Below, one piece after another: positions 12,368 to 62,284 of a stretch of 64,000 nt of DNA; position 1 is the stretch's first letter, and each line of letters starts with the position of its first letter. The DNA comes from a virus (Duplodnaviria; Caudoviricetes), in IMG/VR virus record IMGVR_UViG_3300032280_000786, positions 26,206 through 90,205 of that record; one strand, given 5' to 3'. The translations under genes were made by a program, and so were the position numbers. The notes under the pieces were generated by a model that was given only the letters and a program-made list of their open reading frames with translations, had not been told where the DNA came from and did not search any database.

Positions 12368-12394
12368 AAATCACTCAAATGAGTGATTTTTTTT
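12366..12394. terminator. Bidirectional intrinsic terminator
   Basis: aaaaatcactc-aaat-gagtgatttttttt. Confidence 0.8.
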
Positions 12395-12812
12395 ATACTT
12401 TTAAGGAATTTAATTTTTTAACCGCTCTATTATATATAGCAGTTTCTTTTATAACTTCACTATCTATGTGTTGATTCCACTTGTCACTTACATCGATAAC
12501 TACGAAAGCATATTGTGATGTATCAAAGTTAAAAGATGTTACCCATCTTCTTTCAATACTCATACCATGACTTAATCTCATTGATTTATCGGCATACTTT
12601 TTATTTATCTTATCACATTCTCTGGTCGCACCACCTAAAGTCTTATAAGCTTTTATTTTTAAACTCATTTCTTTTTGTAATTTTCCATTTTTAGTCCAAA
12701 TAAATTCAAATGGTATATCAAAAACTTCGTCAGAGTCACTTAATAGTGACCCTAACTTAGCTTCTCTTTGTGCAGCTTTACTTACTATTACTAGTGTGTA
12801 CATCTTACCCAT
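12393..12812 (-). CDS. Hypothetical protein carrying the REAKLGSLL motif near its N-terminus
   Basis: 139-aa ORF. Confidence 0.55.
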   Translation of the reverse strand: MGKMYTLVIVSKAAQREAKLGSLLSDSDEVFDIPFEFIWTKNGKLQKEMSLKIKAYKTLGGATRECDKINKKYADKSMRLSHGMSIERRWVTSFNFDTSQYAFVVIDVSDKWNQHIDSEVIKETAIYNRAVKKLNSLKV

Positions 12813-12903
12813 TTATATTATAGATCAAAATTATATTAAGTTTATGTGCCTCCACTAATTTCCAATTTTATTTTTTAATATATACTTAAAAATAATTTTG
12901 TTT

Positions 12904-13056
12904 ATGTTAGAAAAAATTTGTAGTGACCATAAAGTACCTATGTGTACAGCAAAAAATGAGAGTGAAGTAATTATGTTAAACCATTATACCAATTTACAAC
13001 CATTATGTAGTAAAATAAATATGTGTATCAAAAGAGATAAACTAGATTATAAATAA
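12904..13056 (+). pseudogene. C-terminal remnant of an HNH homing endonuclease (50 aa)
   Basis: SDHKVPMCTAKNESEVIMLNHYTNLQPLCSKIN matches the C-termini of the HNH ORFs at 23517, 32698 and 37006. It keeps TAATATATA at 12876. Confidence 0.75.
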
Positions 13057-13057
13057 T

Positions 13058-13084
13058 AAAAAAACCCTCAAATGAGGGTTTTTA
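13058..13084. terminator. Bidirectional intrinsic terminator
   Basis: aaaaaccctca-aa-tgagggttttt. Confidence 0.75.
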
Positions 13085-14260
13085 TTATTTAAAGAATTGA
13101 CCATTCATTTCAATTTTTTGCAAATCATCTGGTGTAAATGCACTAGGATTTGATTTAACTGCTTTTAATATTTCCGCATAAACTTTTCTAGCTTCGTCTT
13201 GACGCCCTGTGTAAAAACAAGCAGCTGCATGTCCTTCTGCAAATTTCCAGATGTAAAGTGATTCATCTACGAATAAAAGTTTCTTAGGATAAGGGTTTTT
13301 ACCGTGAAAATTTTCATATCCAAACTTAGTATATAAGTAAGCTAGATGCCATTCTCCCATTTGTAAATAATAATCAACAATTGTTTTAATTGATTCACCT
13401 CTTAACGGATCAATAGCATAAGCCTTTAAACATTGTTGCATTGTTAAGTTCCAAGGATGTTCTAAACTTCTCATAATAGTACCCATACGATAGTGTGAGT
13501 AATATATTTCTTCAACATAACCATCAGTTCTTTCAGTTCTTTCTTTATAGTATTTTAAAGAACGTCTTAATCTTTCTTCATTTTCTTCTCTATTATCAGG
13601 AATAGAAGCAGAATCATGATAAGATTGTGCAGTATAGAAAATCCATCTTGGATCTTGACGATTTTCATTGATATAAGTTTCTAACTTGTGTGAGTGAGAT
13701 AAATACTTTTCAGATATTTTACCTTGCCAAGAAGCACCATCCATACTTACATTTACATGAATACCAGTAGCTAAACCAGAAGTAATATTTTGATCATCAC
13801 ATACAATAAACTCGTGAACGACTCCATACCAGCGAAAGGGCATTGATACTCTAAAAAAAGTATTTCTTGTATATTTCATTTGACCTATATAAGTGTTGAT
13901 CATATAAAGATCCGCGGTGAATTGATTTTTATTAAATGTTGGATCTATAACTAATTGTTCATCACAATCATACCACATACCATGTATTTTAGTTGGATCC
14001 CAACCTAGTTCGTTTACTACGTCTCTAAGTTTCTCCATAGCAAATGTTCTACTTTTATCAAAAGTATCAAAAGGTCTTTCAAATACGTAAGTTGGTGTAT
14101 TATTATCAACACCCCATTTTTTTATTAACTCAATTGTGTTGTCACTTGAACCAGTATCTACTGCAACAACTAAATCTAGAATGTCTTTAGAACTATTCAA
14201 CATTCTCTCTATTACATTCTTTTCATCTTTACATATGAAATTTAATGCTAATTTACCCAT
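13085..14260 (-). CDS. Glycosyltransferase family 2 with TPR-like C-terminal half
   Basis: LNFICKDEKNVIERML, VAVDTGSSDNT, WYDCDE (DxD) and RWYGVVHE, followed by helical repeats. Confidence 0.8.
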   Translation of the reverse strand: MGKLALNFICKDEKNVIERMLNSSKDILDLVVAVDTGSSDNTIELIKKWGVDNNTPTYVFERPFDTFDKSRTFAMEKLRDVVNELGWDPTKIHGMWYDCDEQLVIDPTFNKNQFTADLYMINTYIGQMKYTRNTFFRVSMPFRWYGVVHEFIVCDDQNITSGLATGIHVNVSMDGASWQGKISEKYLSHSHKLETYINENRQDPRWIFYTAQSYHDSASIPDNREENEERLRRSLKYYKERTERTDGYVEEIYYSHYRMGTIMRSLEHPWNLTMQQCLKAYAIDPLRGESIKTIVDYYLQMGEWHLAYLYTKFGYENFHGKNPYPKKLLFVDESLYIWKFAEGHAAACFYTGRQDEARKVYAEILKAVKSNPSAFTPDDLQKIEMNGQFFK

Positions 14261-14314
14261 CTATTTTATATTTTTATTTATTATATAGTATAACTTAGTA
14301 AAGTTTAATATATA

Positions 14315-15067
14315 ATGAAAAAGAAAATAATTGGTATGTTCGTAATTTACAAGGCAGAATTTCCAAATGGTAAAGTTTATATAGGTAAAAGTAAAAATTT
14401 TAATGATAGAAAATTAAAACATTCGTACAGTCCAAAATATTATAGCACTAAATTAACAAATGCTATAAATAAGTATGGATTCGGATCTATAAATTGGGAG
14501 GTCATTTATGAAACAGATGATATAGATGAACTTAATAAAATGGAAATAGAGTTTATTAAAAAATATGACTCTATTAGACTTGGTTACAATACATCTACTG
14601 GTGGTGATGGTGGTGATACCATTTCAAATAATCCTAGAAAACTGGAAATAATAAAACAACAATTATCTACTAAGGGCAAAGATCCTGACAATTATATTGA
14701 AATATCTAGTATTATATCTGATTCAATTTTAGATGATTATATTAATAATAAGTTATCTATACATTCATTAGTTAGAAAGTATGGTATAACAAAAAATAGA
14801 ATTACTCGATTTCTTAAAGTAAAAGAGATTGAAATTGATAAAGAGAGGTGCAAGTTAACTAATTCAAAGGTATTTGATAGTGACTATATAGATAAAGTAA
14901 TAAAAATGTATAAAGATGGCCTTTTGATAAAAGATATTGCAAGAATAGAAAATAAGACCATAATGGTGATAAGTAGGATATTACACGATTCTGGTGTTAG
15001 AATATCTAAAAGATTTGGTGAGGGTAGAGCAAGTGATGGAAGTAAACCAAGAGAAAAAGAAAAATAA
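14315..15067 (+). mobile_element. Free-standing GIY-YIG homing endonuclease with C-terminal HTH-like repeats
   Basis: VIYKAEFPNGKVYIGKS..F..R...H, AINKYG, E...IKKY.S...GYN. The likely start is the internal Met of MFVIY. Confidence 0.85.
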
Positions 15068-15110
15068 GTTTTGTTATTTAATATATACTTTAATAAAAAA
15101 ATTGTATATT

Positions 15111-15668
15111 ATGAAATACTTAAAAAAGTTTAATGAAATGTTAGATCCAATGGGAAGTTGGAATCCTATTCAATTAAATAATGAAGAAGATTTAAAAGAA
15201 GAAGTTTGTACTGAATGTGACTGTATACCTTGTCAATGTACTGGCGAAGATGATGATGAAGATGAAGATTTAAAAGAAGGTTTAGATGATCATTTTAGAG
15301 ATGTCAGAGTAAATTCTTATCTTAAAATTGCAAGAGATAAATATAAAGGTAAATCCTCAGATGATATTGTTGATACTATTGATAAAGGTAATCCTGATTT
15401 AAGATTTATGGACGATAAAGAAAAGGATTTATTTAGAAGCGCTTGGGATAAAGAGAATACAAAAGGAACCTTTAAATACTTTATGTCTTTATCGAATGAT
15501 GAATTAAAAGATTATCAAAATAACTTTTCACATCATGATTTTGATAATCCTACTGAACATAGTCCAGAATTTGTTGCTTGGAAAAAAGCTTGTGAGATAA
15601 AAAAATGTTTCGATAAAGAACCATTTTATCGTTCTAGAAAAGAAAGTGAATTTCCTAGTAGATACTAA
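15111..15668 (+). CDS. Hypothetical protein with MKYLKKFNE leader and a CxxCxCxxCxC cluster
   Basis: The true start is probably 15111 (TAATATATA at 15079) rather than 14994. It contains CTECDCIPCQC and an acidic run. Confidence 0.6.
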   Translation: MKYLKKFNEMLDPMGSWNPIQLNNEEDLKEEVCTECDCIPCQCTGEDDDEDEDLKEGLDDHFRDVRVNSYLKIARDKYKGKSSDDIVDTIDKGNPDLRFMDDKEKDLFRSAWDKENTKGTFKYFMSLSNDELKDYQNNFSHHDFDNPTEHSPEFVAWKKACEIKKCFDKEPFYRSRKESEFPSRY

Positions 15669-15669
15669 T

Positions 15670-15700
15670 AAAAAAGAGAGCTTTTGCTCTCTTTTTTTTT
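15670..15700. terminator. Bidirectional intrinsic terminator
   Basis: aaaaaagagagc-tttt-gctctcttttttttt. Confidence 0.85.
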
Positions 15701-18239: not shown

Positions 18240-18243
18240 AATA

Positions 18244-18564
18244 CTAATTATTTTTATTTAGAATTAAATCTATTGCATTCTGTCTTAAAGTTTGTTTATT
18301 TACTTTAAAATTATGTTGTGTCTTTAATTTATTTATAAAGTGTTTAAAATTAGGTGGGTATTTAGTTATATCTCCCCATCTATTTTTAACTATTGTTGGT
18401 TCAGTTAGATTGTTAAATCGTTTCTCTTGTTTCCATAAGAATAAAACATCGTATTGTTTCTTTGGAGATAGTGATTCAAACCAAACTAAATGATTTGACA
18501 TTTTATTTCTAAGAGATTTCATCTCTTTTATATGTTTTCTCTTTTTTCTTTCCTTCTCTAACAT
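18244..18564 (-). CDS. Hypothetical protein with C-terminal RQNAIDLIL motif
   Basis: Likely start ATG 18564, 4 nt after a TATATTTG box. Confidence 0.55.
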   Translation of the reverse strand: MLEKERKKRKHIKEMKSLRNKMSNHLVWFESLSPKKQYDVLFLWKQEKRFNNLTEPTIVKNRWGDITKYPPNFKHFINKLKTQHNFKVNKQTLRQNAIDLILNKNN

Positions 18565-18582
18565 AGTGCAAATATACAAAAA

Positions 18583-18924
18583 TTATTCTGATTTGGGTAA
18601 AATCTTATTTAATTTAATTTCTCTTAATTCTTGTAAAGAAAAATCAATATACTCAGACGAAGATAAACTTATTGAATAACTATTATTAAATGAATTTTTA
18701 GACTCAATCCTATATCTACCATTCTCTTGTGTAACCTTACAATCTGGATCGATTTTGGCTAGTTTTAATATGTTATTATTGTAATCCCAAACAATTTCAT
18801 ATTTACCTATTTCTTTATACTCAAGAAGTTTTTTAATTTGATCTGTTGTATAAAGTTGTAAACCATTTAACGATCGTCTGGCATTTACTTTATCCTTTAA
18901 CTTTTTTACAAAATAGTTATTCAT
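18583..18924 (-). CDS. Hypothetical protein with C-terminal REIKLNKIL motif
   Basis: 113-aa ORF coupled to the upstream gene. Confidence 0.55.
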   Translation of the reverse strand: MNNYFVKKLKDKVNARRSLNGLQLYTTDQIKKLLEYKEIGKYEIVWDYNNNILKLAKIDPDCKVTQENGRYRIESKNSFNNSYSISLSSSEYIDFSLQELREIKLNKILPKSE

Positions 18925-28009: not shown

Positions 28010-28405
28010 TTATTTGTTTAATATACTTGAAAGTTTAAAATGTCTTTGATACTCTTTTATACAAGCATCATTTTTCTTAATACAATTTATCATTTCTGCA
28101 TTCGACTTAATTTCTATTTTCTCTTCTATATTTTCTACCTTTTTTAGATGTGATGATACATTATAAAAACTACTAGTTCTATTTGGATAACCTTTTTTAT
28201 CTAAATCAAAAGTACCTTTGGATTTAATAAAATAAACCTTATCATTCTCGTAAAGAATTGAATAAATTCGGTCGGGTGCATGAAATACCCATGGATATTC
28301 CTTAGCCCAATGGTTCATAACCCAACCGAATTTATATAAAAAAATTGTATTTACTTCAAACATTCGGGTTCTGTTTACATTTATCAAAATGCCATCTTTT
28401 ACCAT
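28010..28405 (-). CDS. Hypothetical protein with C-terminal RHFKLSSIL motif
   Basis: 131-aa ORF. Confidence 0.5.
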   Translation of the reverse strand: MVKDGILINVNRTRMFEVNTIFLYKFGWVMNHWAKEYPWVFHAPDRIYSILYENDKVYFIKSKGTFDLDKKGYPNRTSSFYNVSSHLKKVENIEEKIEIKSNAEMINCIKKNDACIKEYQRHFKLSSILNK

Positions 28406-30117: not shown

Positions 30118-31266
30118 TTACTTAGTACTACCAGGCTTGTTGATTTTCTTGATAGTTACTAACAAATCTTGAAACTTCAACAAGAAACGTTTAAGTTTTG
30201 GATTTGTAACATCTGCGATATTATCCAAGATGTGTAACAAGTATGCAGTTTTTTCATCATCACCTACTTGGTTCAAGAACTTCTCACAGTTGTCAAGTTG
30301 CTTGTCGGATAACTTAGTGATGTCCATTTCTTTCAAACTTTGGATAAGTTCAGAATTTTTATCACGGTTATATTTCTTCAAGTCTTCCTTAACTTTATCA
30401 AAGTTATTAAGTACGTCCATAATGTTGATGTTCATCATATCTTCACAATAAGTGACAAACTTCATTGCTGAGTTTCCGATGTAACCAGCGGCTACTTCTT
30501 TCAACAAAGGTAGAAACTCTCTTGGAGAAGAATTCATACCGTAGTTTGCTACGATGAACTCAGACATCATAGTCCAAGAACGTGGGGTTGCATAACCTTT
30601 TGCATTGTCACTTGTTTTGTACATATGCTCAGGGTGTGTGTTGATGTAAGACACAATCATTGGGTGTACATTCTCTGTAGCGAAATCGTCAACCCACTCT
30701 TTTACATCTAAAGTGTGGTTAATGTGTACTAAACGGTTGTTTAGAGCACTATCAAACTCTTCTACGTCTGTACCATCTTCGTCACCTAAGTTACCAGAAG
30801 ACATCATAAGAACGTTATCATTGAATTTGAAATCTGTACCGATTTGACGCTCCAACAGGATTTGAAGTGCTGCGTTACGAACTTGTTGAGAAGCTCTATT
30901 CAACTCTTCAAAGTGAATGATTGTTGGTTGTTTGTTAGCTTCAATAGCCCAACGAGGAACTACGAAATCTAAACATTTTACGGTTCTAGTACCATTCTCG
31001 TCTGTTACGTCGATTTCTGATACATTTGGATAAAGACCTACGTCAGTTTCATCAACCATAGATAAACGAATATCCATATATCTAAAGCCCATTTTGTCTG
31101 CGATTGAGCGACCAATCGCTGATTTTGCGATACCTGGTTTAGAGGTAATATTAAGAACTCCGTACTTTGCCCACATAATGGCCATATACTTTCTTTCTTT
31201 TAAAGTTAGTGTAGCTAACTTCTCAACCATTGCCTCGGGCATCAACTTTGAATTTTTCTCTGTCAT
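30118..31266 (-). CDS. MoxR-like AAA+ ATPase
   Basis: Walker A SKPGIAKS, Walker B IIHFEELNRA, sensor GN, R-finger LNNRLVH and TPRSW. Confidence 0.85.
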   Translation of the reverse strand: MTEKNSKLMPEAMVEKLATLTLKERKYMAIMWAKYGVLNITSKPGIAKSAIGRSIADKMGFRYMDIRLSMVDETDVGLYPNVSEIDVTDENGTRTVKCLDFVVPRWAIEANKQPTIIHFEELNRASQQVRNAALQILLERQIGTDFKFNDNVLMMSSGNLGDEDGTDVEEFDSALNNRLVHINHTLDVKEWVDDFATENVHPMIVSYINTHPEHMYKTSDNAKGYATPRSWTMMSEFIVANYGMNSSPREFLPLLKEVAAGYIGNSAMKFVTYCEDMMNINIMDVLNNFDKVKEDLKKYNRDKNSELIQSLKEMDITKLSDKQLDNCEKFLNQVGDDEKTAYLLHILDNIADVTNPKLKRFLLKFQDLLVTIKKINKPGSTK

Positions 31267-40741: not shown

Positions 40742-41199
40742 AACAATAAACTCTTTAGTTTAATATCCCTACTAAATGATTTTATATCATCTATATAAGT
40801 ACATTCATATTTATCTAAAATTTCACTATAACAAGCCCATCTATCTTTTCTCTTTGACCAAAAAGAAACCATTGGATCATCTGATCTACCAATCGGTACA
40901 TACAAGTCTTTATTATTCTCTAAACAATAATCTACTAGCTCTTGTATTTTAGAAGGATCATTTATAAAAATGTCCAAGTGATAAACCATTATACAATCTT
41001 GTTCAATTTTAGAATAATCGATTTTATCTGGATTATTTATACCCAACTTTCTAACACCAATAAAATCATTTAGTTTGTACTTATATAAAAGTAAAGTACT
41101 TAAATCGTTTCTATTGAGAGTTTTGTATATTTCTATAAGTTCCTTTCTTTCTTGGAATTTTCCCTCCCAGGACCATTTATCATCTATTCTATAAATCAT
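40738..41199 (-). CDS. Hypothetical protein with C-terminal RDIKLKSLL motif
   Basis: 153-aa ORF. Confidence 0.55.
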   Translation of the reverse strand: MIYRIDDKWSWEGKFQERKELIEIYKTLNRNDLSTLLLYKYKLNDFIGVRKLGINNPDKIDYSKIEQDCIMVYHLDIFINDPSKIQELVDYCLENNKDLYVPIGRSDDPMVSFWSKRKDRWACYSEILDKYECTYIDDIKSFSRDIKLKSLLF

Positions 41200-44587: not shown

Positions 44588-46141
44588 TTATTTTTCGTTT
44601 GCTTCTAAAACGATTTGTTTAATTCTACCATGACCAGCATCCGCAATTGGGCATTTAGTACCAACTGATATAATCAAGGTTTTACCTTTAATACCTTTGA
44701 AGTTCAGATGATCCGTGTAACCGTCAGTTAAAATTACATTGTTGAAATCATTAAAGTTTTCTCTAATGTAATCAATAGCTGGATTTAGACAAGTACCACC
44801 TAAACCTTTAATTGGAATAGTTTCAAGTCTTCTTTTACTTTTGATGTTCTCTACCCAATTTACTTGTGTATCGGACTCCATTAAGTTTATTTCTATATCA
44901 TTACGATATACATAAGAAAGAACTCTCTCAAACGTGCCACTTCCGCCCATCGAACCTGATGTGTCGAGTACAACATTGATTTTGGTTTTAACCTTTCTAT
45001 TACCTTTAAGACCAGCGATTTGACGTCTGTTTGGTTTAACGATAGTTTTTTGTTTTATCGTACCGAAAATCATATTAGACACTGCTCTTTTGATTTCTTT
45101 AAGGTAATCTTTTCTTTTCTTTCTTAACTTGTTAAGAGTAGTTTCAACATTACCAGCAGATAAACCACGAGCAGCTAATCTTTCCATAACGTCTCTTACC
45201 ATCGCTTCACGCATCTCTTCTGGAACGTCGTCTCCCATGTGTTTATCTAAATACTCACCTGTACCGTTTTCGTAATCTTCAAAGATTTGCTCAGTTGACC
45301 AAGTATCGATTTCACCACCACTTTTACCAGGATTTTTACCGTAAGGACCGTATGAAGGTTTACCAGTAGAGTCTTTACCAGACTCACCACCATCTTTACC
45401 AGTTCCACCACAATCTGGACATGGCTCACCATGGCCTCCTTCGCCTTGACCATCACCTTTTTGATCTGATTGTCCTTCACCTTGACCGTCACCTTGTTCT
45501 TGACCATCTTTACCTTTTCCTTGACCTTCTGATTTATCTTGTGGTTGACCATCACCTTCACCAGGCTCTTGACCTTTACCTTTATCAGATTTATCTTGAG
45601 GTTTTTGACCACTACCATTACAAGTAGAACACTCACATTTAGATTTTTGTTCTTTGTTCCACTCGTCTTTTTTCTCTTTCATCCACTCGTATAACTCTTC
45701 AAAGATAAGTTTACCCTCATATTCTTTTGGAACAAAAAGAGCCATATTCTTACCATCTGGAGATTTAGGAATTTCAACGAAGTTATGAGAAATGTCTTCC
45801 CAGATAATATGATTGATAATCATATCTTGTACAATGTTAGACAATTTGTGGTCGTATTGACCAGTAATAGTTCTTTTTGGGTGGTTGAAAAGTAAGTGGA
45901 AATCCTCGTGAAGAGTGATAAAGTTTACTTCTTTTTGAGACATATCCGCCAAGAACTTTGGAGAGTAGTAAAAGTTCATACCTTTTGTCCCCACATTAAC
46001 TCCACAAGTACCTACTGCATCATTCTCGTGAAAGTTGATGTGTAGGTTAAATTCACCGTAGTATGGAAGATTGATCTTGGTATCAATAAGCATTGACTGA
46101 ACACTGGCTAATAGTTTCTCGTGTATATTCTTTATTACCAT
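44588..46141 (-). CDS. DUF2201-type metallopeptidase-like / VWA domain protein
   Basis: FITLHEDFHLL (HExxH), NIVQDMIIN, and C-terminal MIDAS VLDTSGSM...GGT...ILTDG. Confidence 0.85.
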   Translation of the reverse strand: MVIKNIHEKLLASVQSMLIDTKINLPYYGEFNLHINFHENDAVGTCGVNVGTKGMNFYYSPKFLADMSQKEVNFITLHEDFHLLFNHPKRTITGQYDHKLSNIVQDMIINHIIWEDISHNFVEIPKSPDGKNMALFVPKEYEGKLIFEELYEWMKEKKDEWNKEQKSKCECSTCNGSGQKPQDKSDKGKGQEPGEGDGQPQDKSEGQGKGKDGQEQGDGQGEGQSDQKGDGQGEGGHGEPCPDCGGTGKDGGESGKDSTGKPSYGPYGKNPGKSGGEIDTWSTEQIFEDYENGTGEYLDKHMGDDVPEEMREAMVRDVMERLAARGLSAGNVETTLNKLRKKRKDYLKEIKRAVSNMIFGTIKQKTIVKPNRRQIAGLKGNRKVKTKINVVLDTSGSMGGSGTFERVLSYVYRNDIEINLMESDTQVNWVENIKSKRRLETIPIKGLGGTCLNPAIDYIRENFNDFNNVILTDGYTDHLNFKGIKGKTLIISVGTKCPIADAGHGRIKQIVLEANEK

Positions 46142-47427: not shown

Positions 47428-47709
47428 TTATTTTAACAATTCCCTTAATCTTTCTTCTCTAAATTCTTCAAGTGTTGTGAATACAGATTTTGGATAAAGG
47501 CAAGTACTACCACTATCATCAACTAATCTGTAATTATCATTTTCACCTATCTTGTTATTGGTTCTAACAAATTCACTTTGGTATGTTTTACCAATAGTTA
47601 AATTTGGAAATCCAAAACCTGGTTTTCCTTTACTCCAAGTTCCTTGCCATAAAGGTCTTTGTAGTTGGTGTGAACCATATAAATTTGTTTTACATACTAT
47701 TTGTATCAT
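47428..47709 (-). CDS. Hypothetical protein with C-terminal REERLRELL motif
   Basis: 93-aa ORF. Confidence 0.55.
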   Translation of the reverse strand: MIQIVCKTNLYGSHQLQRPLWQGTWSKGKPGFGFPNLTIGKTYQSEFVRTNNKIGENDNYRLVDDSGSTCLYPKSVFTTLEEFREERLRELLK

Positions 47710-47894
47710 TTTAACAATTCGTCTATCTTTTTAGATTTTAAAAAGTTTTTGTATGATTGAACTTCAAGTGGATCAACACTTTCAATCAAAGTTTCAAAGT
47801 CAATTTTATTCAAAAAGTAATTGTCTAATAAACTTGTGTCTATTAGAACTTGATTTTCAATTAAGTATTGTATGTATTCTTTTTCGTAATTCAT
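47706..47894 (-). CDS. Small hypothetical protein ending KSKKIDELLK
   Basis: Likely start 47894, 4 nt after TATATTTG. Confidence 0.5.
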   Translation of the reverse strand: MNYEKEYIQYLIENQVLIDTSLLDNYFLNKIDFETLIESVDPLEVQSYKNFLKSKKIDELLK

Positions 47895-47932
47895 AGCACA
47901 AATATACAAAAATTTATTTAATATATACTATT

Positions 47933-49132: not shown

Positions 49133-50958
49133 TATGATAGAACTGCAGTGATTTTATCGTCTCTTAAAGCAGCAGTAACCGTACTTAAATCGTGATTTTT
49201 AATCTCATATAGTTCAGTTCCCTCTGGGAAGTTTATAACTACATCCGCATACCCTTCAAATTGATGTGAGATATAATCGTCTAAATCAAATTCATTTGAG
49301 AACGAACCATCCTCTAACTTGGCAGAAATTCCAATTGTTCCTACAAAACCAGGTATTAGATAAGCATCAACCATATCAGTACTATCTTCTAAATCATTAT
49401 TTTGTTGCCAGTATTTATACTCATTTAAAGTCATAACAGAACCAAATCCAAAACAACATACATCGTGTTTGTATTCACCTCCGACAAAAATCTCAAATCC
49501 ACTTTCATCATCAGTTATTTGAAATTCATCACCATCGCCAATAACAACAATCGTTTCTGGTTTGTCAAATGTCCGTAAGATTTTTTGTTTAAACTCTGGG
49601 TTCTCTACATTTTTAAACTGTTGTTTAAAATTTGTTGGATGAACTGTATTAGGCTCAGTTTTTTCTTCAATAAGAACAAACTCACCATCAGAACCTTCCG
49701 CACCACCAGTTTTCACTTCGTATGAATTAGAACCTGCAACTTTATCGAACTCTGGTTCTTGTTCAAAACCTTTCTTCAACATTTTTGCAGTAAGTTGGTG
49801 CCAATTCAATTTACCTCTGTATTCAAACTCACCTTCTGCGGTAACTGTAAACTTACCAAATAAGTCAACAGATTGAATTAATTTATAAATTTCTTTAGTA
49901 GTTTCTTTATCTTCGAAGTTATCCTTCTTAGCGATAGAGATTTTGTAGAAACTTTCAGTTAAATGTTTAATCAAAACATCTTTTTTAAGTTTCATTAGTT
50001 CAGAAATTCTACCTACTAACTCAGTATCAGAGTCAGATAAACCAATTTCACTTTTTTGTTCGTCAGAAACTAAGAAAACATATCCATTAGAAACAGCGTT
50101 AGGAACTAATGACTCTAAACGAGTTTCTAAAATAGAAAGTGCTTCAGATGATTTCTCTGCATTAGCTTCAGCATGTTTAGCTTCTGAATTATATCTTTTA
50201 ATCTCTGTCTCAGTCTTTTCAATACGTTCTTTCAACTCATTGATTTTATCTTCATTCATTTTGTTGAATTGCTCTTCCATATAAGTAAGTGCGATTGGTT
50301 TTTCAACAACAACTTCTTCGATAACTTCTTCAACTACCGGTGTTTCGTCCTCAATGGTTTCGATAGTTTCACCTGATAATAACATATCAAGAAAACTTAA
50401 ACCTTTTTCAGATAATTCAGTAGTTTCTTCTTTTTGTTTTTCTTCTTCAAAAAGGTTCATAAGTTTATCATAAGGTTTAACGTGTTCTACTTCAAGAAAA
50501 CATTTATAACCATCTTGATCTTCAAATTCTAAGCCAGCAACAATAAACTTTTGAGCATAACCAGTTACATCAGTTGAGTCAATTTCATTGATCAAACGTT
50601 GTTTCATTGCAGTATCTGCTAAGTTAGTACCTTCAACTTCTTCAAAGTTTATAGTTCCTTCATCACAAATAGTAATTTTAAATTTAGCACGTTCTAACAT
50701 ACCAGATAGTTTTCTACCTTCGATAAAAGCAGTTTCTCTGATCAAACGTATTTTCTTACCGGAAATAGCAGAAACAAAACTTAAAAACTTTCTTTTGGGT
50801 TTGAACTCACCAATAACTGGTTCTTTAACTTCAACTTCTGTTTCAGTATCTTCTTTATCTACAGAGATACCTTCATCACTAAAAGTAACTTTACCAAGTC
50901 CTAAGTTTTTTGCCATTTCTTGAATAGAATTCATCATTCCTTTTTTATCTTCACTCAT
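49132..50958 (-). CDS. Large acidic hypothetical protein with central coiled coil, ending RDDKITAVLS
   Basis: 608 aa with a TATATTTG promoter at 50983. Confidence 0.6.
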   Translation of the reverse strand: MSEDKKGMMNSIQEMAKNLGLGKVTFSDEGISVDKEDTETEVEVKEPVIGEFKPKRKFLSFVSAISGKKIRLIRETAFIEGRKLSGMLERAKFKITICDEGTINFEEVEGTNLADTAMKQRLINEIDSTDVTGYAQKFIVAGLEFEDQDGYKCFLEVEHVKPYDKLMNLFEEEKQKEETTELSEKGLSFLDMLLSGETIETIEDETPVVEEVIEEVVVEKPIALTYMEEQFNKMNEDKINELKERIEKTETEIKRYNSEAKHAEANAEKSSEALSILETRLESLVPNAVSNGYVFLVSDEQKSEIGLSDSDTELVGRISELMKLKKDVLIKHLTESFYKISIAKKDNFEDKETTKEIYKLIQSVDLFGKFTVTAEGEFEYRGKLNWHQLTAKMLKKGFEQEPEFDKVAGSNSYEVKTGGAEGSDGEFVLIEEKTEPNTVHPTNFKQQFKNVENPEFKQKILRTFDKPETIVVIGDGDEFQITDDESGFEIFVGGEYKHDVCCFGFGSVMTLNEYKYWQQNNDLEDSTDMVDAYLIPGFVGTIGISAKLEDGSFSNEFDLDDYISHQFEGYADVVINFPEGTELYEIKNHDLSTVTAALRDDKITAVLS

Positions 50959-51013: not shown

Positions 51014-51430
51014 CTATTCTACTTCTTTTTCGTCGTCAATTAAATCAATTCTAATATCACGAACTTGTTCCTTTGTATAAACCTCTGCAACTTTATTGTC
51101 TGCTGAATCCACAATGAACTCGGTTTCAATGTAAGTATCTCCTGTTTCTTTAACTAGTTCAAGTAATACTTCATTTGTTACTTCTTTATCGTCTTGAACA
51201 TCAAATATTTCCATAATTTGTTTTTCAAACGGTAAGAAGTTATGTTTTACGACTGTGTTTTCGTCGTCATGTTTATCTAAACAAAGTATAAGTAATAAAT
51301 ACAACTCTCTTTCTGAAAGTTCATTCATTCTTTCTACTTGACTATAAACATTGAAATGTTTGTAGCAGTCCATAAATAAATCTGACACTACTACTTTCTT
51401 AATCTTAGCTTTTTCTCCCATATAAATCAA
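51014..51430 (-). CDS. Hypothetical protein (RDIRIDLI motif)
   Basis: 138-aa ORF. Confidence 0.55.
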   Translation of the reverse strand: MIYMGEKAKIKKVVVSDLFMDCYKHFNVYSQVERMNELSERELYLLLILCLDKHDDENTVVKHNFLPFEKQIMEIFDVQDDKEVTNEVLLELVKETGDTYIETEFIVDSADNKVAEVYTKEQVRDIRIDLIDDEKEVE

Positions 51431-51433: not shown

Positions 51434-51886
51434 TTAAATTCCTAATTTTTCTAATTGGTAATCTCGATAATCTTGTTTAGATACCGTACCCAATTCATAA
51501 GCTCTAAAAAAGAATACATCAAAAATGTGTTCTTGTTTTAAATCTCTTGCAGCCATTGCTCTATTGATGGCTTTATGTTCATCAGTAATTCTAATGGCTT
51601 GTGTTCTTGCTAACCTAATAGCTTTTTCTTCATCACCATCACTTTTAGTCATGATGTCTTTTACTCTTGTAAAGTTTTTTGTGTATTCTGCTTTTGTTTG
51701 TCCGTTGTACGTACCTTGTTGTTTAGGCATAAGTTTTAGTTCTATTAGTTTAGATTCAAGCATCAATTCAAATTGTTTCTTAGTTCTTTCACCATTCCAT
51801 ACTTGGTTAAAGTTAAAAACATTTGCGGATTGATACTTATTCCAAAAGTAATATAAATCCATTAAATCTACAAATTTATTATTCAT
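51434..51886 (-). CDS. Hypothetical protein (RDYQLEKL motif)
   Basis: 150-aa ORF. Confidence 0.55.
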   Translation of the reverse strand: MNNKFVDLMDLYYFWNKYQSANVFNFNQVWNGERTKKQFELMLESKLIELKLMPKQQGTYNGQTKAEYTKNFTRVKDIMTKSDGDEEKAIRLARTQAIRITDEHKAINRAMAARDLKQEHIFDVFFFRAYELGTVSKQDYRDYQLEKLGI

Positions 51887-52605
51887 TATTCTGTAATTTC
51901 ATCAATTCGTGCAGTTCTACTCCAAGTTAAATCTTCTTCTCTCATATATAATACTCTACCATACTTAATAACGGTATCTGCTGAGTTACTTATTATTTCT
52001 ACAACTTTATATGAAATACCAACATCATAAATATATTTTAAGACTAAATAATCCATTGATCTATCTTTCACGGTTGATACAACTTCTGATAATTTAAACT
52101 TAGGTTCTAATTGTAAGAACTCAATAGTATCATCGATATGTTTTACATAACCCATTATATCTCCTAAATGTCCTTCAAAAACATAATGAAATTTAATATA
52201 CTCTTTTTTAAATAAAGTGTGTTGTTCTGTTACTAAATCAACTTTAACTCTATCTAAATTTATGTTTCGATTACTATCACCAGTACTAACAGGTGTTTTT
52301 ATTTCTCTAAGTTTAATTTCATTGTATATTTCATCAAACTTGTCAATCTTATCAAAATCTATTGAAAATATTAAGTTAAATTTTATATGTGGTTCTGGTA
52401 CTGAATTTTCTGCTTGATAAAGATTTGTACCCCATTTAGTTTTATTTGTATTTGGATATTGTGTTATATCTAGGTCAAATCCTATTACTGGACTATATGC
52501 AGAATTTGCAACATACTTAGGTCTTATTATAATTCCAAGTTGATGATCTTGCAATCGTTCATTCCATTGCAGTATCTCAGTATCCGTAAGTTTAGTCATT
52601 ATCAT
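51886..52605 (-). CDS. Hypothetical protein (RTARIDEI motif)
   Basis: 239-aa ORF. Confidence 0.55.
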   Translation of the reverse strand: MIMTKLTDTEILQWNERLQDHQLGIIIRPKYVANSAYSPVIGFDLDITQYPNTNKTKWGTNLYQAENSVPEPHIKFNLIFSIDFDKIDKFDEIYNEIKLREIKTPVSTGDSNRNINLDRVKVDLVTEQHTLFKKEYIKFHYVFEGHLGDIMGYVKHIDDTIEFLQLEPKFKLSEVVSTVKDRSMDYLVLKYIYDVGISYKVVEIISNSADTVIKYGRVLYMREEDLTWSRTARIDEITE

Positions 52606-52840
52606 TTCTAAGTATTTGAGTTATCTTCTCGTCTCTATTATCTTCTATTGTACAAAAAAATTTATCAAAAGTTTTCTTTGATAAAGGAACAAATTCATTT
52701 TTCTCAGATTTTATTTTTTTATAAACACCGAAACCTAATTCATAATCTTTTGGATCTAACATTTCATAGGTTTTATTTTTTATAAAATAAATGTTATCAT
52801 CTTCCATAAATGTTCTTTTACAAAATATTCTCGTTATCAT
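52592..52840 (-). CDS. Hypothetical protein (RDEKITQIL motif)
   Basis: 82-aa ORF. Confidence 0.55.
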   Translation of the reverse strand: MITRIFCKRTFMEDDNIYFIKNKTYEMLDPKDYELGFGVYKKIKSEKNEFVPLSKKTFDKFFCTIEDNRDEKITQILRNDND

Positions 52841-56397: not shown

Positions 56398-56898
56398 TTA
56401 AACTAATAAACATAATTGATAATCTCTACCAATAGAGATTTCATTTTTCCAAGTATCTAGTTTTCTAACAAGATTAGTGTGCATGTGATTGTATAATTCT
56501 TTGTTTATTCTTTCTGGTGAACCAACTAACTCTTCAAATAATGAGATTAAGTCAGATGTCATCCAAACTAATTCAGAAAGTGGTTTCATCGAACCATCTT
56601 GCATCATCATAGGTCTAATGTAGAAATGTTTTTCATTAGCTCTAATAATAAAGTTAATTATATCTTTCATTTCAATAAAAATGTGGTCATTAACATGCCA
56701 CTTATCTCGCCATTGATTAACTTGTGGATCTAACATTGATTCTAAAGTTTTATCATAAGAGATAGGTTTAGGTCTAAACCCAATATATTTATCCCACTTC
56801 TCTTTAATATAAGAAGGATCACAATTAATGAAGTCATTATGTGATTTGTGAAAAGCGAAACTGAACCTAATAAGGTTATCGATTTGATTTTTATCCAT
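56398..56898 (-). CDS. Hypothetical protein ending RDYQLCLLV
   Basis: ATG lies 4 nt after TATCTTTG (56903). Confidence 0.55.
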   Translation of the reverse strand: MDKNQIDNLIRFSFAFHKSHNDFINCDPSYIKEKWDKYIGFRPKPISYDKTLESMLDPQVNQWRDKWHVNDHIFIEMKDIINFIIRANEKHFYIRPMMMQDGSMKPLSELVWMTSDLISLFEELVGSPERINKELYNHMHTNLVRKLDTWKNEISIGRDYQLCLLV

Positions 56899-57668: not shown

Positions 57669-57681
57669 GATGTCTTTTTTA

Positions 57682-58099: not shown

Positions 58100-58345
58100 T
58101 TAATTTCCTAATATTTGATTTAATTTTTCTTCTCGTATCTCTTCTATTGTTTCAAAACAGTTAGTAAAGTTTTCCTCAGTACCAATCCAATCACAAAAGT
58201 CAAAGGAATAGATCCTTACACCTTCTTCGTGTTCTCTTACTAATACACTATAGTATTCACCTTCTTCAAATCGAAAATAAGGTTGTGTTAAGTTCCAATA
58301 AAAGCTTTCTTTGCATCTACATCTTTCTTTACTTATCTCCTTCAT
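58100..58345 (-). CDS. Hypothetical protein ending REEKLNQIL
   Basis: 81-aa ORF. Confidence 0.55.
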   Translation of the reverse strand: MKEISKERCRCKESFYWNLTQPYFRFEEGEYYSVLVREHEEGVRIYSFDFCDWIGTEENFTNCFETIEEIREEKLNQILGN

Positions 58346-58712
58346 TTAATATATTTTCTATTTTTAAATTTCTTTTGTATTGTAAAGTTACATCATCAAA
58401 AATAAATGAGTTTAAATCAATCATTTCTTTACTTAGAATAGTTTCCTGTTCTATATCAATTTTTTCATCATCACTTATGTAAAAATCTAAATAAGTATAA
58501 GTAGTTGTTGTTTGATGTGATTTAAAGAAACGAGTACAAATGATGTCACCTTTTTTTAAATCTAATGTATAGGTTAAATCATCCCAATCATTTATATTAC
58601 GTAAGTCTCTTTCTCTAGCATTGTCCAATACAGATATAGTAAAGTCATTCAACATTTCATAATAATGAAATTGTTGATACTTCTCATGAATATATCTTGG
58701 TACGTATTCCAT
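58329..58712 (-). CDS. Hypothetical protein ending RNLKIENIL
   Basis: 127-aa ORF. Confidence 0.55.
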   Translation of the reverse strand: MEYVPRYIHEKYQQFHYYEMLNDFTISVLDNARERDLRNINDWDDLTYTLDLKKGDIICTRFFKSHQTTTTYTYLDFYISDDEKIDIEQETILSKEMIDLNSFIFDDVTLQYKRNLKIENILNEGDK

Positions 58713-58870
58713 TAAAGTTCTTTCTCTTTGTTTCTATTATCAATAACAACTCTTTTACAACCATCACAAACAACGACTGGTCCGTCTTGTGTCATTACAA
58801 CTTTTCTTAAACATTCTCCCTCACAGAACTTAGTTCCAAGTGGTGCGTATTTTCTTAATTCATTATCCAT
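58712..58870 (-). CDS. Small zinc-ribbon protein (52 aa, not in the ORF track)
   Basis: MDNELRKYAPLGTKFCEGECLRKVVMTQDGPVVVCDGCKRVVIDNRNKEKEL, with TATCTTTG at 58886. Confidence 0.6.
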   Translation of the reverse strand: MDNELRKYAPLGTKFCEGECLRKVVMTQDGPVVVCDGCKRVVIDNRNKEKEL

Positions 58871-58961
58871 AATTCGTATTTTATACAAAGATAAGAATTA
58901 AATTAGAATAAACAAAGAAAAATTTTTTACTATATATAAGACAAAAAATCAAGTTTTATAA

Positions 58962-60800
58962 ATGTCAATAGATAAAAAATACCAAAAACTCGATGATATA
59001 TCTCACGTTATTGCCAGACCCGGAATGTATATCGGTTCTATTAAACCACACACAGCAAATAAATGGGTGTTAGATAACGATAAGATGGTTCAACAAGAAC
59101 TAACTTATAATCCAGGGTTTCTTAAAATTTTTGATGAGATTATTACTAACTCTGTCGATGAAAGTAAGCGAACAGGATCTAAATTAAATACCGTTAAAGT
59201 TACAATCAAAGACAATACTATCTCAATCTGGGATAACGGTGGAATACCCGTAGTTAAACACACAGAACATAACGAATGGATTCCTGAAATGATTTTCTCA
59301 AATCTTAAATCTGGTTCAAACTTTGATGATACAGAAGAAAGATCTTGGGCAGGAACAAATGGTGTGGGTTCTACACTAACAAACATCTATTCATTAGAGT
59401 TTATAATCTCTACTTGTGATGGTAAAAATCATTTCTATCAAACTTATAAAAATAATATGAGAGATAGAGTTGACGCAACAATTAAAAAGTCTAAATCAGC
59501 GCATACTGAAATTACATTTAAACCTGACTTTGAAAAGTTTGGATTAGATGGTATCGATGAAGATCATTTTAAAATGATACAAAAAAGAATATATGACTTA
59601 GCTGCTTGTAATACACACTTAAAAATACATTTCAATAATGATTTAGTAAATCTTAATTCATTTGAAGATTACATTAAATTATATACGACCGAATACTTTT
59701 ACGAAACTAATAAAGATAAAACGTGGTCAATAGCAATTGCTCTTTCAGAGAATGGGTTTCAACAAATTAGTTTTGCAAACTCAACAGAAACATATGATGG
59801 TGGAACACACGTTGATTATATAATGAATCAAATAGTAGTAGAATTAAGAGAGTTCTTTGCTAAGAAACATAAAGTAGATATAAAACCATCAGAGTTAAAA
59901 AGTCATATGTTTTTGTTCTTAGATTCAACGGTAATCAACCCTTCGTTCTCTTCTCAAACAAAAGAGAAATTAATTACAGAAGTTAAGGATTTTGGTTGTA
60001 CCTTTGAGGTTAGTAAAAAATTAACTCAACTTATATTAAAATCTGAGATTGTTAATTCAATTTTAGATTGGATTGAACAAAAGAAAAGTGCTGAAAATAA
60101 TAAGTTAGAAAGAGAACTAAACAAAAAGTTATCTAAAATCAAAGTTGAGAAACTTATTGATGCTAAAGGCAAAGACCGTTGGAAATGTTCATTAGGATTA
60201 TTCGAGGGAGATTCTGCATCAGGTGCTTTTAGAAAGTATCGTTCACCAGAGACAATGGGAGCGTTCTCTTTAAAAGGAAAGTTTATAAATGTATCTGAGA
60301 TTACTAATCAAAAGTTAGTTCAAAATACAGAAGCGGTGAACTTAATGGCAGCAATTGGTTTAAAATTAGGACAAGCAGTTGAGTTAAAACATTTGAGATA
60401 TGGTAAAGTTTTACTTTATACAGATGCAGATGTCGATGGTAATTCAATTTCCGCTTTGTTGATTAATTTTTTCTATAAGTATTGGCCAGAAGTATTCGAC
60501 AGAGGAATGATTTACAAAGTAGAGACACCTATTGTTGTAGCAGTACCGAAAGCTAAGAAATCTAAAAAGATTTTATTCTATACACAAACAGAGTATAATG
60601 ATTGGGCAGACAAAGCTGATATGAAACAATATGAGATTAAGTATAAGAAAGGTTTAGCAGCACTAGTTGATGATGAGTATCAAGACATTATAAATAGTCC
60701 AAGAATGACTAAGATCTCAAAAGATGATATATCAACAGAGTATTTAGATATATGGTTTGGTAAGAATGCGGATTTAAGAAAAACAGAATTATTAAAATAA
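58962..60800 (+). CDS. DNA topoisomerase II (type IIA) ATPase/TOPRIM subunit, T4 gp39+gp60-like
   Basis: HVIARPGMYIG, EIITNSVDE, WDNGGIP, GTNGVG, FEGDSA, LKGKFINV, YTDADVDG and YKKGL. Confidence 0.92.
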   Translation: MSIDKKYQKLDDISHVIARPGMYIGSIKPHTANKWVLDNDKMVQQELTYNPGFLKIFDEIITNSVDESKRTGSKLNTVKVTIKDNTISIWDNGGIPVVKHTEHNEWIPEMIFSNLKSGSNFDDTEERSWAGTNGVGSTLTNIYSLEFIISTCDGKNHFYQTYKNNMRDRVDATIKKSKSAHTEITFKPDFEKFGLDGIDEDHFKMIQKRIYDLAACNTHLKIHFNNDLVNLNSFEDYIKLYTTEYFYETNKDKTWSIAIALSENGFQQISFANSTETYDGGTHVDYIMNQIVVELREFFAKKHKVDIKPSELKSHMFLFLDSTVINPSFSSQTKEKLITEVKDFGCTFEVSKKLTQLILKSEIVNSILDWIEQKKSAENNKLERELNKKLSKIKVEKLIDAKGKDRWKCSLGLFEGDSASGAFRKYRSPETMGAFSLKGKFINVSEITNQKLVQNTEAVNLMAAIGLKLGQAVELKHLRYGKVLLYTDADVDGNSISALLINFFYKYWPEVFDRGMIYKVETPIVVAVPKAKKSKKILFYTQTEYNDWADKADMKQYEIKYKKGLAALVDDEYQDIINSPRMTKISKDDISTEYLDIWFGKNADLRKTELLK

Positions 60801-61058
60801 ATGGATATAATAATTAAATATCATGAAAAAACATCTGGTGAAAATCAGATGTTTCTTTTAGATTTAACTAAACATTATCAAATTTTGCCAATAAATACCC
60901 CACAATCAAAAGTAGATTTATCTAAATATGATGGTAAAATGGTCTATGGTACTTTTGGAGGTTATGGACGTAATGATGGTCATTCTATTTTTATACTAGA
61001 TAAAGTACAAATAGATAGAGATTTAAAAATAAATGACATTTTAAAAATAGATGAATAA
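60801..61058 (+). CDS. Hypothetical protein ending RDLKINDIL
   Basis: 85-aa ORF abutting the topoisomerase stop. Confidence 0.55.
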   Translation: MDIIIKYHEKTSGENQMFLLDLTKHYQILPINTPQSKVDLSKYDGKMVYGTFGGYGRNDGHSIFILDKVQIDRDLKINDILKIDE

Positions 61059-61378
61059 TGAGAGACCGAGAATGGAGACGATACCAAGAAGAGGTCAAGT
61101 TAATAAAACGACTTGATCGGGTTATTCGTGTCTATTGGCGAGGTCATAAAGATAAAAATGGTGTTTATTATATAAACCCTACAATTAAACATTTTATAGG
61201 TTCTGATGCTTATAAGATGTTTAAAACTTATACTACAAAAGATTATGATACTCGTTTTAAAACAAAGTATTCTCCAAATCATATGAAATCTTATTGGAGA
61301 GATAGTAACAAAAAAGGAAAAAGAGAATCCGATAAAGTAAAATTTTTAAAACTATTAAAGGAATATGGAATTAAGTAG
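61058..61378 (+). CDS. Basic hypothetical protein
   Basis: 106-aa ORF. Confidence 0.5.
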   Translation: MRDREWRRYQEEVKLIKRLDRVIRVYWRGHKDKNGVYYINPTIKHFIGSDAYKMFKTYTTKDYDTRFKTKYSPNHMKSYWRDSNKKGKRESDKVKFLKLLKEYGIK

Positions 61379-61886
61379 TTTAATACCAAATAATTCCAAA
61401 AGTTGGAACATAAAGAATGGAACTCTTTTTTATAAGAAACTCCACAATATACCTATGGCTCAAATTGAAGATAAGGTAGTTTATATTTTCTTAGAATGTT
61501 CTTTACCTAGAATAACTTTACAACTAATTAAACACGTAATGAGTTTAGGTGTTCAGTTTTATATGTTACCACCTTCTTTTTCACATCCTGCTTGTGTAAT
61601 TGACAACTCTTATGTTATAAGACATTACTTTACTGCTTATTCAAATCAAGAGTTCTTTGATGGTTTTAATAAAATTGGTTTTGATTTAACTTCAAATCTA
61701 GTAGGTTGGTGTAAAAAAGAGGATTGTGTTTCTTTGATAAAAGAAAACTATGATAAGATAAATACTGATATACAGAAAACTTACTATGATTATTATGCTA
61801 ATAAAGATGTGAGTGATTACTCAGTAGAAGTTAGAGAAGAGTTTAGAACTTTATATCGTGATATACAAATTTCTATGATTTTATAA
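61365..61886 (+). CDS. Hypothetical protein ending RDIQISMIL
   Basis: 173-aa ORF. Confidence 0.55.
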   Translation: MELSSLIPNNSKSWNIKNGTLFYKKLHNIPMAQIEDKVVYIFLECSLPRITLQLIKHVMSLGVQFYMLPPSFSHPACVIDNSYVIRHYFTAYSNQEFFDGFNKIGFDLTSNLVGWCKKEDCVSLIKENYDKINTDIQKTYYDYYANKDVSDYSVEVREEFRTLYRDIQISMIL

Positions 61887-61930
61887 CTTATTGATTATTT
61901 TTAATATAAATAAAAAATAATCATTTTAAA

Positions 61931-62284
61931 ATGGCTAATAATAGTTTTTGGAATACAACAAGTACTGCTTTAGGTTCACTAGGTAGTGCAGTAACTACAC
62001 TAGCAAATACTAGTGGTGCAATAACATTAGGTTCAAGTGGTACATCTAATTATACAATACAACAAGAAAAAACAACTTATCATATTTTAGGAGAATATGT
62101 TGAAGTAAAAGGTTGGTCTGATCCTTATCTAACAATGGCAATTTCTACTTTAAACATATTAAAGAAACCTTATTATGAAGAATTGAGAAAGAATAATTTT
62201 AAGTTTCCTACAGAGATTGAGGAATACTTAAAAATAGCTTTTAGAGACGATTTAATTGATGAGATAATAAAGCCTACTTTTTAG
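61931..62284 (+). CDS. Hypothetical protein ending RDDLIDEII
   Basis: 117 aa with an S/T/G-rich N-terminus and TATAAATA at 61905. Confidence 0.55.
   Translation: MANNSFWNTTSTALGSLGSAVTTLANTSGAITLGSSGTSNYTIQQEKTTYHILGEYVEVKGWSDPYLTMAISTLNILKKPYYEELRKNNFKFPTEIEEYLKIAFRDDLIDEIIKPTF

Follow-up and report, generated by a model that had tools for sequence, protein, structure and literature searches.

A conserved C-terminal helical tag on unrelated small proteins of huge phages, and candidates for its reader

Short address peptides shared by otherwise unrelated phage proteins are known from bacteriophage T4, in which the capsid targeting sequence (CTS) of the internal proteins and Alt is N-terminal, belongs to late proteins, and is cleaved off by the prohead protease. 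Other short terminal peptides take proteins to AAA+ machines of the Clp type (ssrA and the SspB XB tail), mark cargo for encapsulins and microcompartments, or bind clamps (the PIP box). In bacteria, vWA-MoxR pairs are thought to capture a substrate peptide and to remodel the substrate, and some of these pairs are linked to a zincin peptidase and to small, fast-diverging proteins that share a conserved C-terminal peptide, of which FxSxx-COOH, RxD, acidic, and FtsH-associated types have been described (Kaur et al. 2020, PMC7159879). Here we report a C-terminal peptide, hereafter the tag, that recurs on unrelated small proteins encoded by a 64,000-nucleotide stretch of phage DNA (the window), which corresponds to positions 26206-90205 of the 90,205-bp IMG/VR virus record IMGVR_UViG_3300032280_000786 (~28% GC; CheckV completeness, 27%). 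The tag belonged to none of the described systems with which it was compared, and we infer a likeness to terminal address peptides in general. The author of an earlier note on the same DNA had not recognized the motif as a described family, and no description of such a C-terminal tag was found in the literature searched.

The pattern R-[DEN]-x-[KRQ]-[IL]-x-x-[IL]-[LG]-x was found at the C terminus of 14 to 17 of the ~92 open reading frames (ORFs) of the window, or about one in six. All 17 C-terminal instances listed in the earlier note, which identified them by the ends of their ORFs, were present in the ORFs named; exact motif positions are given below with each carrier. Three of the 17 were degenerate, one with K at position 1 (47706) and two in which position 9 was not hydrophobic (51014 and 51886). 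The stricter pattern of the note occurred 7 times within 7 residues of a C terminus in the 90-kb record and once elsewhere, compared with 0.002 expected C-terminal matches when whole proteins were shuffled and 0.018 when only the last 18 residues were shuffled, which keeps local composition. Consistent with this result, a looser form of the pattern was observed 14 times in the record and expected 0.09 times under last-18-residue shuffling. Enrichment over a composition-matched null had been set as the check beforehand, and the observed number was far above chance. The N-terminal and internal occurrences that had been included with the C-terminal ones (12393, 16699, and 26592) were at background frequency, as internal matches to the core pattern numbered 7 in the record against 3.5 expected, and we place them outside the system.

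By BLAST, a match in LR745206, a genome of 634,780 bp, was found for 78 of the 121 ORFs of the record, and most of the matched ORFs ran collinear with its 486-569 kb region in inverted order, at protein identities of 30 to 80%. A second complete genome, LR756502 (642,428 bp), also contained a homolog of the window's 608-aa tag carrier, with many tag-bearing ORFs in the surrounding 42 kb, and the window's 150-aa carrier was found identical on contigs of up to 169 kb. Both complete relatives are genomes of uncultured phages, hereafter the 634-kb and 642-kb genomes. By the match in size we take them to be 'Mahaphage' genomes of Al-Shayeb et al. (2020, PMC7162821), in whose study the phages with genomes of >634 kb had Bacteroidetes as their predicted hosts for replication. 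The mention of Flavobacterium in the earlier note was a guess. From the collinearity with the 634-kb genome and the matches in the 642-kb genome, we conclude that the window is a piece of a huge phage genome.

In the 634-kb genome, the tag was found at the C termini of 112 of 967 ORFs (11.6%), or 141 with a looser pattern, and internal matches numbered 15 in 182,867 residues. Carriers in that genome were small, with a median size of 106 aa compared with 144 aa for all ORFs and only one carrier above 250 aa, mostly soluble, and located in tightly packed gene runs. When 58 carriers from the window and from two 42-kb loci of the relatives were clustered by BLAST after removal of their tails, they fell into 49 unrelated clusters, each multi-member cluster consisted of orthologs from different genomes, and no two carriers of the window were paralogs; the bodies were thus as unrelated as had been proposed. 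No significant family match was obtained for 48 carriers with Pfam, a set that included ten of the larger carriers of the 634-kb genome, or for 10 carriers with PHROGs, the window carriers having been scanned with both; the only leads were a weak one to BtpA and a weak one to Prok-E2_A. Moreover, the tag was retained in all ten pairs of orthologs from the window's genome and its 634-kb relative, with bodies only 29 to 54% identical, and in the family of the 150-aa carrier the last 11 residues were nearly invariant among the 120 listed of 471 homologs, at an overall identity of ~57%.

The tag was also found outside the two complete relatives. A DNA pattern for one form of it gave 21 matches in IMG/VR, nearly all of them on contigs with 26 to 30% GC and sizes of 77 to 476 kb, and on IMG/VR contigs there were arrays in which 21 of 34, 12 of 19, and 10 of 15 ORFs ended in the tag. 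Beside close homologs of a zincin-VWA gene described below, 16% of ORFs carried it. The core R-x-x-[KR]-[IL]-x-x-[IL]-Phi persisted in more distant relatives, and position 2 drifted from D, E, or N to K or R. The tag is carried by ~12 to 16% of the proteome across a clade of huge, Mahaphage-type phages, a scale far larger than the ~19 proteins first noticed. We conclude that the carriers are small, fast-evolving, soluble accessory proteins.

The anatomy of the tag was determined from 223 non-redundant instances, in which R at position 1 was fixed by the search pattern. The consensus was Phi-x-x-Phi-R-[DEN]-x-K-[LI]-x-x-[IL]-[LG]-[I/x], a predicted capped amphipathic helix of ~10 residues. Ahead of the arginine, position -4 was K, I, or L and position -1 was L or I. 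Position 2 was D in 60%, E in 21%, and N in 13% of instances; position 4 was K in 83%, R in 11%, and Q in 7%; position 5 was L in 62% and I in 37%; position 8 was I or L in 95% combined; position 9 was L in 47% and G in 35%; and position 10 was often I. The protein ended directly after position 10 in 54% of instances and within 0 to 2 residues after position 9 in 80%, and the remaining 20% had 3 to 9 more residues before the stop. On the helix, one face is shared by R1, K4, and positions 5, 8, and 9/10, which are hydrophobic. An AlphaFold2 model from 44 sequences of the 150-aa carrier's family (mean predicted local distance difference test [pLDDT] score, 82) placed the tag in the C-terminal helix (residues 137-148), which follows a loop of four residues, with a pLDDT of ~80 to 84 over the last two 10-residue blocks compared with 92 to 97 in the core. 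The model of an 82-aa carrier (pLDDT, 42) gave only a hint of a beta-rich body with a terminal tag helix. A fold search of the 150-aa model against the PDB returned nothing at E <= 0.001, only weak helical-repeat rows, and a search of the ESM Atlas returned only unnamed viral clusters.

One way in which such a motif could arise without any function of the peptide is as an artefact, either of nucleotide-level constraints at gene junctions, such as A-rich initiation regions or recombination linkers, or of amino acid composition. In favor of an artefact, the next gene overlaps or abuts 58% of carriers compared with 37% of other small ORFs, and there was a small shift toward A-ending codons at tag positions 8 and 9. 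However, tag codons varied synonymously between the instances of the window, and over the 223 instances codon choice at the conserved positions equaled genome-wide usage (AGA encoded 79% of tag arginines and 76% genome-wide), which argues that selection acts on the peptide rather than on the DNA. Moreover, 29% of carriers in the 634-kb genome had no coupled downstream gene, several window carriers ended at convergent or long intergenic junctions, shuffling of the last 18 residues left 0.018 strict matches against the 7 observed, and the order of the residues was kept in orthologs with 29 to 54% identical bodies. On the tail-only shuffles, the codon usage, and the carriers without a downstream gene, we reject a junction RNA element, a recombination linker, and a composition artefact; an explanation of this kind is scarcely credible and is refuted as far as sequence analysis reaches. 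The proposal of a C-terminal helical motif shared at the peptide level by unrelated proteins is supported by shuffles, codons, and clustering alike.

The same genomes carry a second label, an N-terminal leader of the form M-[KR]-x-Phi-[KRN]-x-[FY] that resembles the T4 CTS. Tag and leader, which the earlier note had described as mutually exclusive, proved to be so in the window, and in the 634-kb genome none of the 69 leader ORFs was among the 112 tag ORFs (~8 expected; P = 1.5e-4). Both labels occurred within one gene run in 2 of 419 runs of that genome, and same-strand neighbor pairs of a C-terminally and an N-terminally labeled gene were almost absent. The two labels also differed in their promoters. 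The T4 gp23-like capsid gene has a TATATA-type motif ~30 nt ahead of it, and such a late-type motif headed 88% of leader runs, 40% of tag runs, and 46% of unlabeled runs in the 634-kb genome; directly upstream of the gene itself, it was found for 49% of leader genes and 9% of carriers. Conversely, the host-type element TAnnTTTG headed 35% of tag runs compared with 14% of unlabeled runs and 6% of leader runs, in line with the remark of the earlier note that many carriers lie in TAnnTTTG operons. Tags were rare around the capsid gene: in the 634-kb genome, the stretch from 140 to 260 kb contained 0 to 2 of them in every 20 kb.

The same promoter split was visible in the window. Leader ORFs there include those at 9345, 19478, 33630, 35058, 40487, 41821, 42344, and 42673 and those at 47387 and 48588 on the minus strand, among others, and a AATATATA motif was found ~27 to 30 nt upstream of most leader ORFs of the window (7 of 12 pattern matches, or at the head of the run). 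The exclusion of tag and leader, the promoter split, and the rarity of tags near the capsid gene argue that the tag marks a class of small, non-late proteins distinct from the late, head-targeted class. The label 'early' for the tagged class would follow from promoter type only. We conclude that the phage seems to use two mutually exclusive labels for two classes of protein.

We consider it probable that the tag is a protein-level C-terminal address or docking signal, because one helix is found on dozens of unrelated bodies at a near-fixed distance from the C terminus, and because it is under strong purifying selection on fast-evolving orphans and strictly excluded from the other class. If so, the helix face on which R1, K4, and the hydrophobic residues at 5, 8, and 9/10 lie would be read by one shared partner. 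Our best guess at that reader, offered tentatively, is a MoxR-like AAA+ ATPase of the phage acting with a zincin-VWA protein, such that the VWA or zincin part would capture the tag and the machine would remodel or trim the tagged proteins. The candidate zincin-VWA protein (517 aa; 44588..46141, minus strand; Pfam DUF2201_N and DUF2201) has HExxH at residue 78 (DUF2201_N, E = 5e-15), a Gly/Gln-rich linker with a CxxC zinc-ribbon-like region, and a VWA domain with an intact metal ion-dependent adhesion site (MIDAS), DxSxS, at residue 393. More than 1,885 homologs were found, with a mean column identity of 78%. The candidate partner (382 aa; 30118..31266, minus strand) has a variant Walker A motif, SKPGIAKS, a Walker B motif, IIHFEE, a weak AAA_5 match that scored below the Pfam cut-off, and 6,074 relatives, and its identity with the 634-kb ortholog is 80%. 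The ATPase and the zincin-VWA protein, at 71 to 82%, rank with the clade's most conserved proteins, and both genes have TAnnTTTG upstream, 38 nt away in the case of the zincin-VWA gene. A PDB sequence search with the two proteins returned nothing. The genes of the two presumed partners are 14 kb apart rather than side by side.

The candidate reader resembles the vWA-MoxR zincin systems (PMC7159879) in several respects. Here too, a conserved C-terminal peptide is joined to variable small proteins (49 clusters, with orthologous bodies 29 to 54% identical), and an HExxH zincin, a MIDAS VWA domain, and a MoxR-like ATPase, the last with its sub-cut-off AAA_5 match, all occur in the window. Moreover, a complete 192.6-kb phage genome of another group, the only clear case of such adjacency, has a neighboring pair of a canonical MoxR (AAA_5) and a DUF2201 zincin-VWA protein beside an array of small, tailed ORFs: ahead of the pair, on its strand, lie about ten small SH3-like ORFs that start with M-K-x-G-D-L-V, and five of these share the ending E-V-I-S-E-x-R (13291-19117 of the stretch 100001-120000). 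Unlike those systems, however, the tag matches none of the four described peptide types, a single protein combines zincin and VWA, more than 100 carriers are scattered genome-wide rather than represented by one adjacent precursor, and the setting is a phage rather than a bacterial conflict island.

Several observations weigh against this choice of reader. The small ORFs of the 192.6-kb phage look paralogous, which weakens that case. Tag density in the 20 kb around zincin-VWA homologs was 13 to 16%, close to the 11.6% found genome-wide, and therefore the neighborhood does not single out the zincin-VWA gene. Position 2 was N, H, S, or Q in about one-fifth of tags and K or R in distant relatives, and therefore the tag is a poor fit with an acidic residue that completes the MIDAS site. 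In a PA5oct-type Pseudomonas jumbo phage, in which a related zincin gene lies near an ATPase gene, no shared tail was visible in the 24 kb inspected. Finally, a ClpC-like ATPase of the relatives is equally conserved (82%). Two other weak zincin-VWA hits outside the clade matched one domain only. As a whole, an address or docking tag with the MoxR-like ATPase and the zincin-VWA protein as its guessed reader is the best explanation we can offer, possible though somewhat short of an even chance. A broader scheme, in which the N-terminal leader on late genes directs proteins to the head and the C-terminal helix on >100 non-late orphans directs them to a phage AAA+ machine, either MoxR with zincin-VWA or ClpC/ClpP, for processing, assembly, or clearance, would amount to a two-label sorting code and is speculative.

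The tag was also compared with the remaining described peptides. Like the T4 CTS, it is a short peptide common to otherwise unrelated phage proteins, and the relatives have a gp23-like capsid protein. Unlike the CTS, the tag is C-terminal rather than placed after the initiator Met, is carried by non-late proteins, as the distribution of TATATA among run heads indicated, and is strictly exclusive of the CTS-like leader in the same genomes. The ssrA and SspB XB tails are likewise short C-terminal peptides that lead to an AAA+ machine, genes for a ClpC-like ATPase and ClpP are present in the relatives, and the tag lies at the extreme C terminus, as a predicted terminal helix after a loop, as Clp degrons do; yet it has no sequence likeness to them, is a conserved helix of ten residues where they have a few terminal residues, and is encoded by >100 genes rather than added by transfer-messenger RNA as ssrA is. 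With PIP-box and other clamp motifs the tag shares a polar residue followed by three hydrophobic residues (spaced i, i+3, i+6, i+7) and a frequently C-terminal position. Unlike the PIP box (Q-x-x-[LIM]-x-x-[FY]-[FY]), it has no aromatic pair, with I/L at position 8, L/G at position 9, and F in only 4% at position 9, and its carriers are not replication enzymes and had no Pfam or PHROG match. In addition, neither PF09116 (gp45 C-domain) nor PF00712 (beta-clamp) was found in the fragment or in either relative, PCNA families not having been searched, and the clamp idea was rejected.

The closest competitor as reader is the ClpC-like ATPase of the relatives, which lacks the Clp N-domain, together with two ClpP paralogs. 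The tag would then be a C-terminal degron by which an AAA+ protease, whether this one or that of the host, clears non-late proteins at a set time, an account that we regard as unlikely. Both complete relatives encode the ATPase (701 aa in the 634-kb phage and ~710 to 720 aa in the 642-kb phage, 82% conserved between them), with a short acidic stretch in place of its Clp N-domain, and two ClpP genes. In LR745206 the ATPase is a double AAA+ protein (423224-425329), the ClpP paralogs are at 123556-124221 and 75119-75859, and one ClpP gene has a tag carrier (122918-123550) immediately downstream. A hydrophobic ending 0 to 2 residues from a free C terminus in 80% of cases, on the non-late class and never on late-class proteins, would also suit a degron. 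On the other hand, ten conserved helix positions with an invariant R and a K exceed the usual needs of pore-engaged degrons, 20% of tags are followed by 3 to 9 extra residues, no Clp genes were found on the 90-kb fragment (27% of the genome), and the 192.6-kb phage with its tailed small ORFs has no ClpC-type ATPase in its genome. Less probable again is a reader that belongs to the host, such that the tag docks host-takeover proteins on one Bacteroidota protein, for example in transcription, translation, or proteostasis, with each body supplying a different activity. Small orphan carriers behind host-type promoters do resemble the host-takeover genes of other large phages, and the tag is confined to AT-rich contigs of huge phages that are relatives of genomes with predicted Bacteroidetes hosts. 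But competition of >100 proteins for a single host site is hard to reconcile with function, and the drift of position 2 tracks phage divergence, which a co-evolving reader encoded by the phage fits at least equally well.

A role that needs no reader, in which the helix mediates self-association, stabilizes the body, or serves as a generic C-terminal cap acquired repeatedly, is very unlikely. The tag is amphipathic, with hydrophobic spacing of i, i+3, i+4, and in the one good model, in which its pLDDT is ~80 to 84, it may pack on the body. However, the same R, K, and hydrophobic positions are shared by 49 unrelated families and are predicted both on an all-helical body and, at low confidence, on a beta-rich one, and neither a near-fixed C-terminal distance nor strict exclusion from the late class is expected of a generic element. 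Still harder to sustain is the loading of cargo, in which the tag would bind the procapsid interior in the manner of encapsulins so that small proteins are packed in the head and injected. Encapsulin and microcompartment peptides are likewise short, terminal, partly hydrophobic, and found on unrelated cargo, the encapsulin shell that reads them belongs to the phage-capsid fold family, the relatives have a T4 gp23-like (HK97-fold) capsid protein, and huge heads could hold many internal proteins. Yet the carriers are non-late and depleted near the structural module, the late-type motif that precedes the gp23-like capsid gene is mostly absent from their runs, contrary to the co-expression of encapsulin shell and cargo, and the CTS-like leader on late genes already fits a packaging role. 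Nor is there a flexible linker of the encapsulin kind, as positions -8 to -1 showed no enrichment of Gly, Pro, or Ala and were hydrophobic at -1 and -4. No BMC domain was found, and the microcompartment idea was rejected on that ground.

Most genes of huge phages are orphans without a functional clue, and the tag sorts more than 100 of them into one functional class. A docking interpretation is plausible from the sequence evidence, and a tag shared by 12 to 16% of a proteome predicts a single reader that could be retrieved with one peptide. If the phage itself encoded that reader as an AAA+ machine, it would be the first bacterial virus with its own proteome-wide system of addressing or clearance, and the two-label code, if true, would constitute a viral proteostasis and addressing system that covers a sixth of the proteome. 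The tag might also be usable as a portable stability, processing, or localization handle in Bacteroidota and as a sequence marker of the phage clade in metagenomes.

Most carriers of the window are on the minus strand, and the following tag positions are given in window coordinates. Two lie in adjacent ORFs: the tag at 18259..18285 in ORF 18244-18579 (111 aa) is four residues from the stop and is kept in the 634-kb ortholog, and that at 18598..18624 is in ORF 18583-18924 (113 aa). The tag at 28019..28045 in ORF 28010-28405 (131 aa) is kept in an ortholog with a body identity of 29%. ORF 40738-41199 (153 aa; tag at 40744..40770) converges on ORF 40487-40741 and has no downstream gene on the same strand. 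The tag of ORF 47428-47709 (93 aa) is at 47434..47460, and that of the next ORF, 47706-47909 (67 aa), at 47712..47738, is the variant with K at position 1. The sole large carrier of the window is ORF 49132-50958 (608 aa; tag at 49138..49164), whose homologs of 622 aa in the 642-kb phage and 731 aa in the 634-kb phage have the same terminal tag; a peptide-pattern search of IMG/VR returned no relatives of it.

A further group of minus-strand carriers begins at ORF 51014-51430 (138 aa), in which a degenerate tag (51035..51061) is followed by an acidic extension; the 634-kb ortholog has a canonical tag. The 150-aa carrier with the AlphaFold2 model described above is ORF 51434-51886, and its tag (51440..51466), the last helix of that model, has the G-I ending form. 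ORF 51886-52605 (239 aa) has a degenerate tag at 51892..51918 and orthologs with canonical tags, and the 82-aa carrier is ORF 52592-52840 (tag at 52610..52636). The tag at 56401..56427 in ORF 56398-56898 (166 aa) abuts the stop codon exactly. ORF 58100-58345 (81 aa) carries its tag at 58109..58135, and ORF 58329-58712 (127 aa) carries one at 58347..58373 that is kept in an ortholog with a body identity of 32%. On the plus strand, tags are found at 61017..61043 in ORF 60801-61058 (85 aa); at 61857..61883 in ORF 61365-61886 (173 aa), where the tag abuts the stop codon exactly and is kept in the ortholog; and at 62243..62269 in ORF 61931-62284 (117 aa), which has L at position 4 where the ortholog has K.

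The longest-ORF calls of 18244-18579, 47706-47909, and 58712-58888, all on the minus strand, start at a TTG that lies a few codons ahead of an ATG. The true starts of these three are probably the internal ATGs, which would put the TAnnTTTG box at a plausible promoter distance. The ortholog of 51886-52605 in the 642-kb phage gave a weak match to prokaryotic E2 family A (Prok-E2_A; E = 0.0019, below the cut-off), and a glutamine-synthetase-like gene (53973-54986) lies near this 239-aa carrier.

Other features of the window include a 92-aa protein (36251-36529, minus strand) with a strongly acidic C-terminal tail, in which runs of D/E are accompanied by W, F, and Y. This tail is conserved in both relatives and is reminiscent of the acidic tails that single-strand-binding proteins have. 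A 233-aa protein (55647-56348, minus strand) has a signal-peptide-like N terminus and tandem terminal S-T-D-G-G-R repeats. HNH-type and other homing-endonuclease-like ORFs were found at 12898-13056, 23517-24071 (minus strand), 32698-33618, 37006-37713, 43894-44574, and 46266-47123. The last of these separates the zincin-VWA gene from the main cluster of carriers, and the two are contiguous in the relatives.

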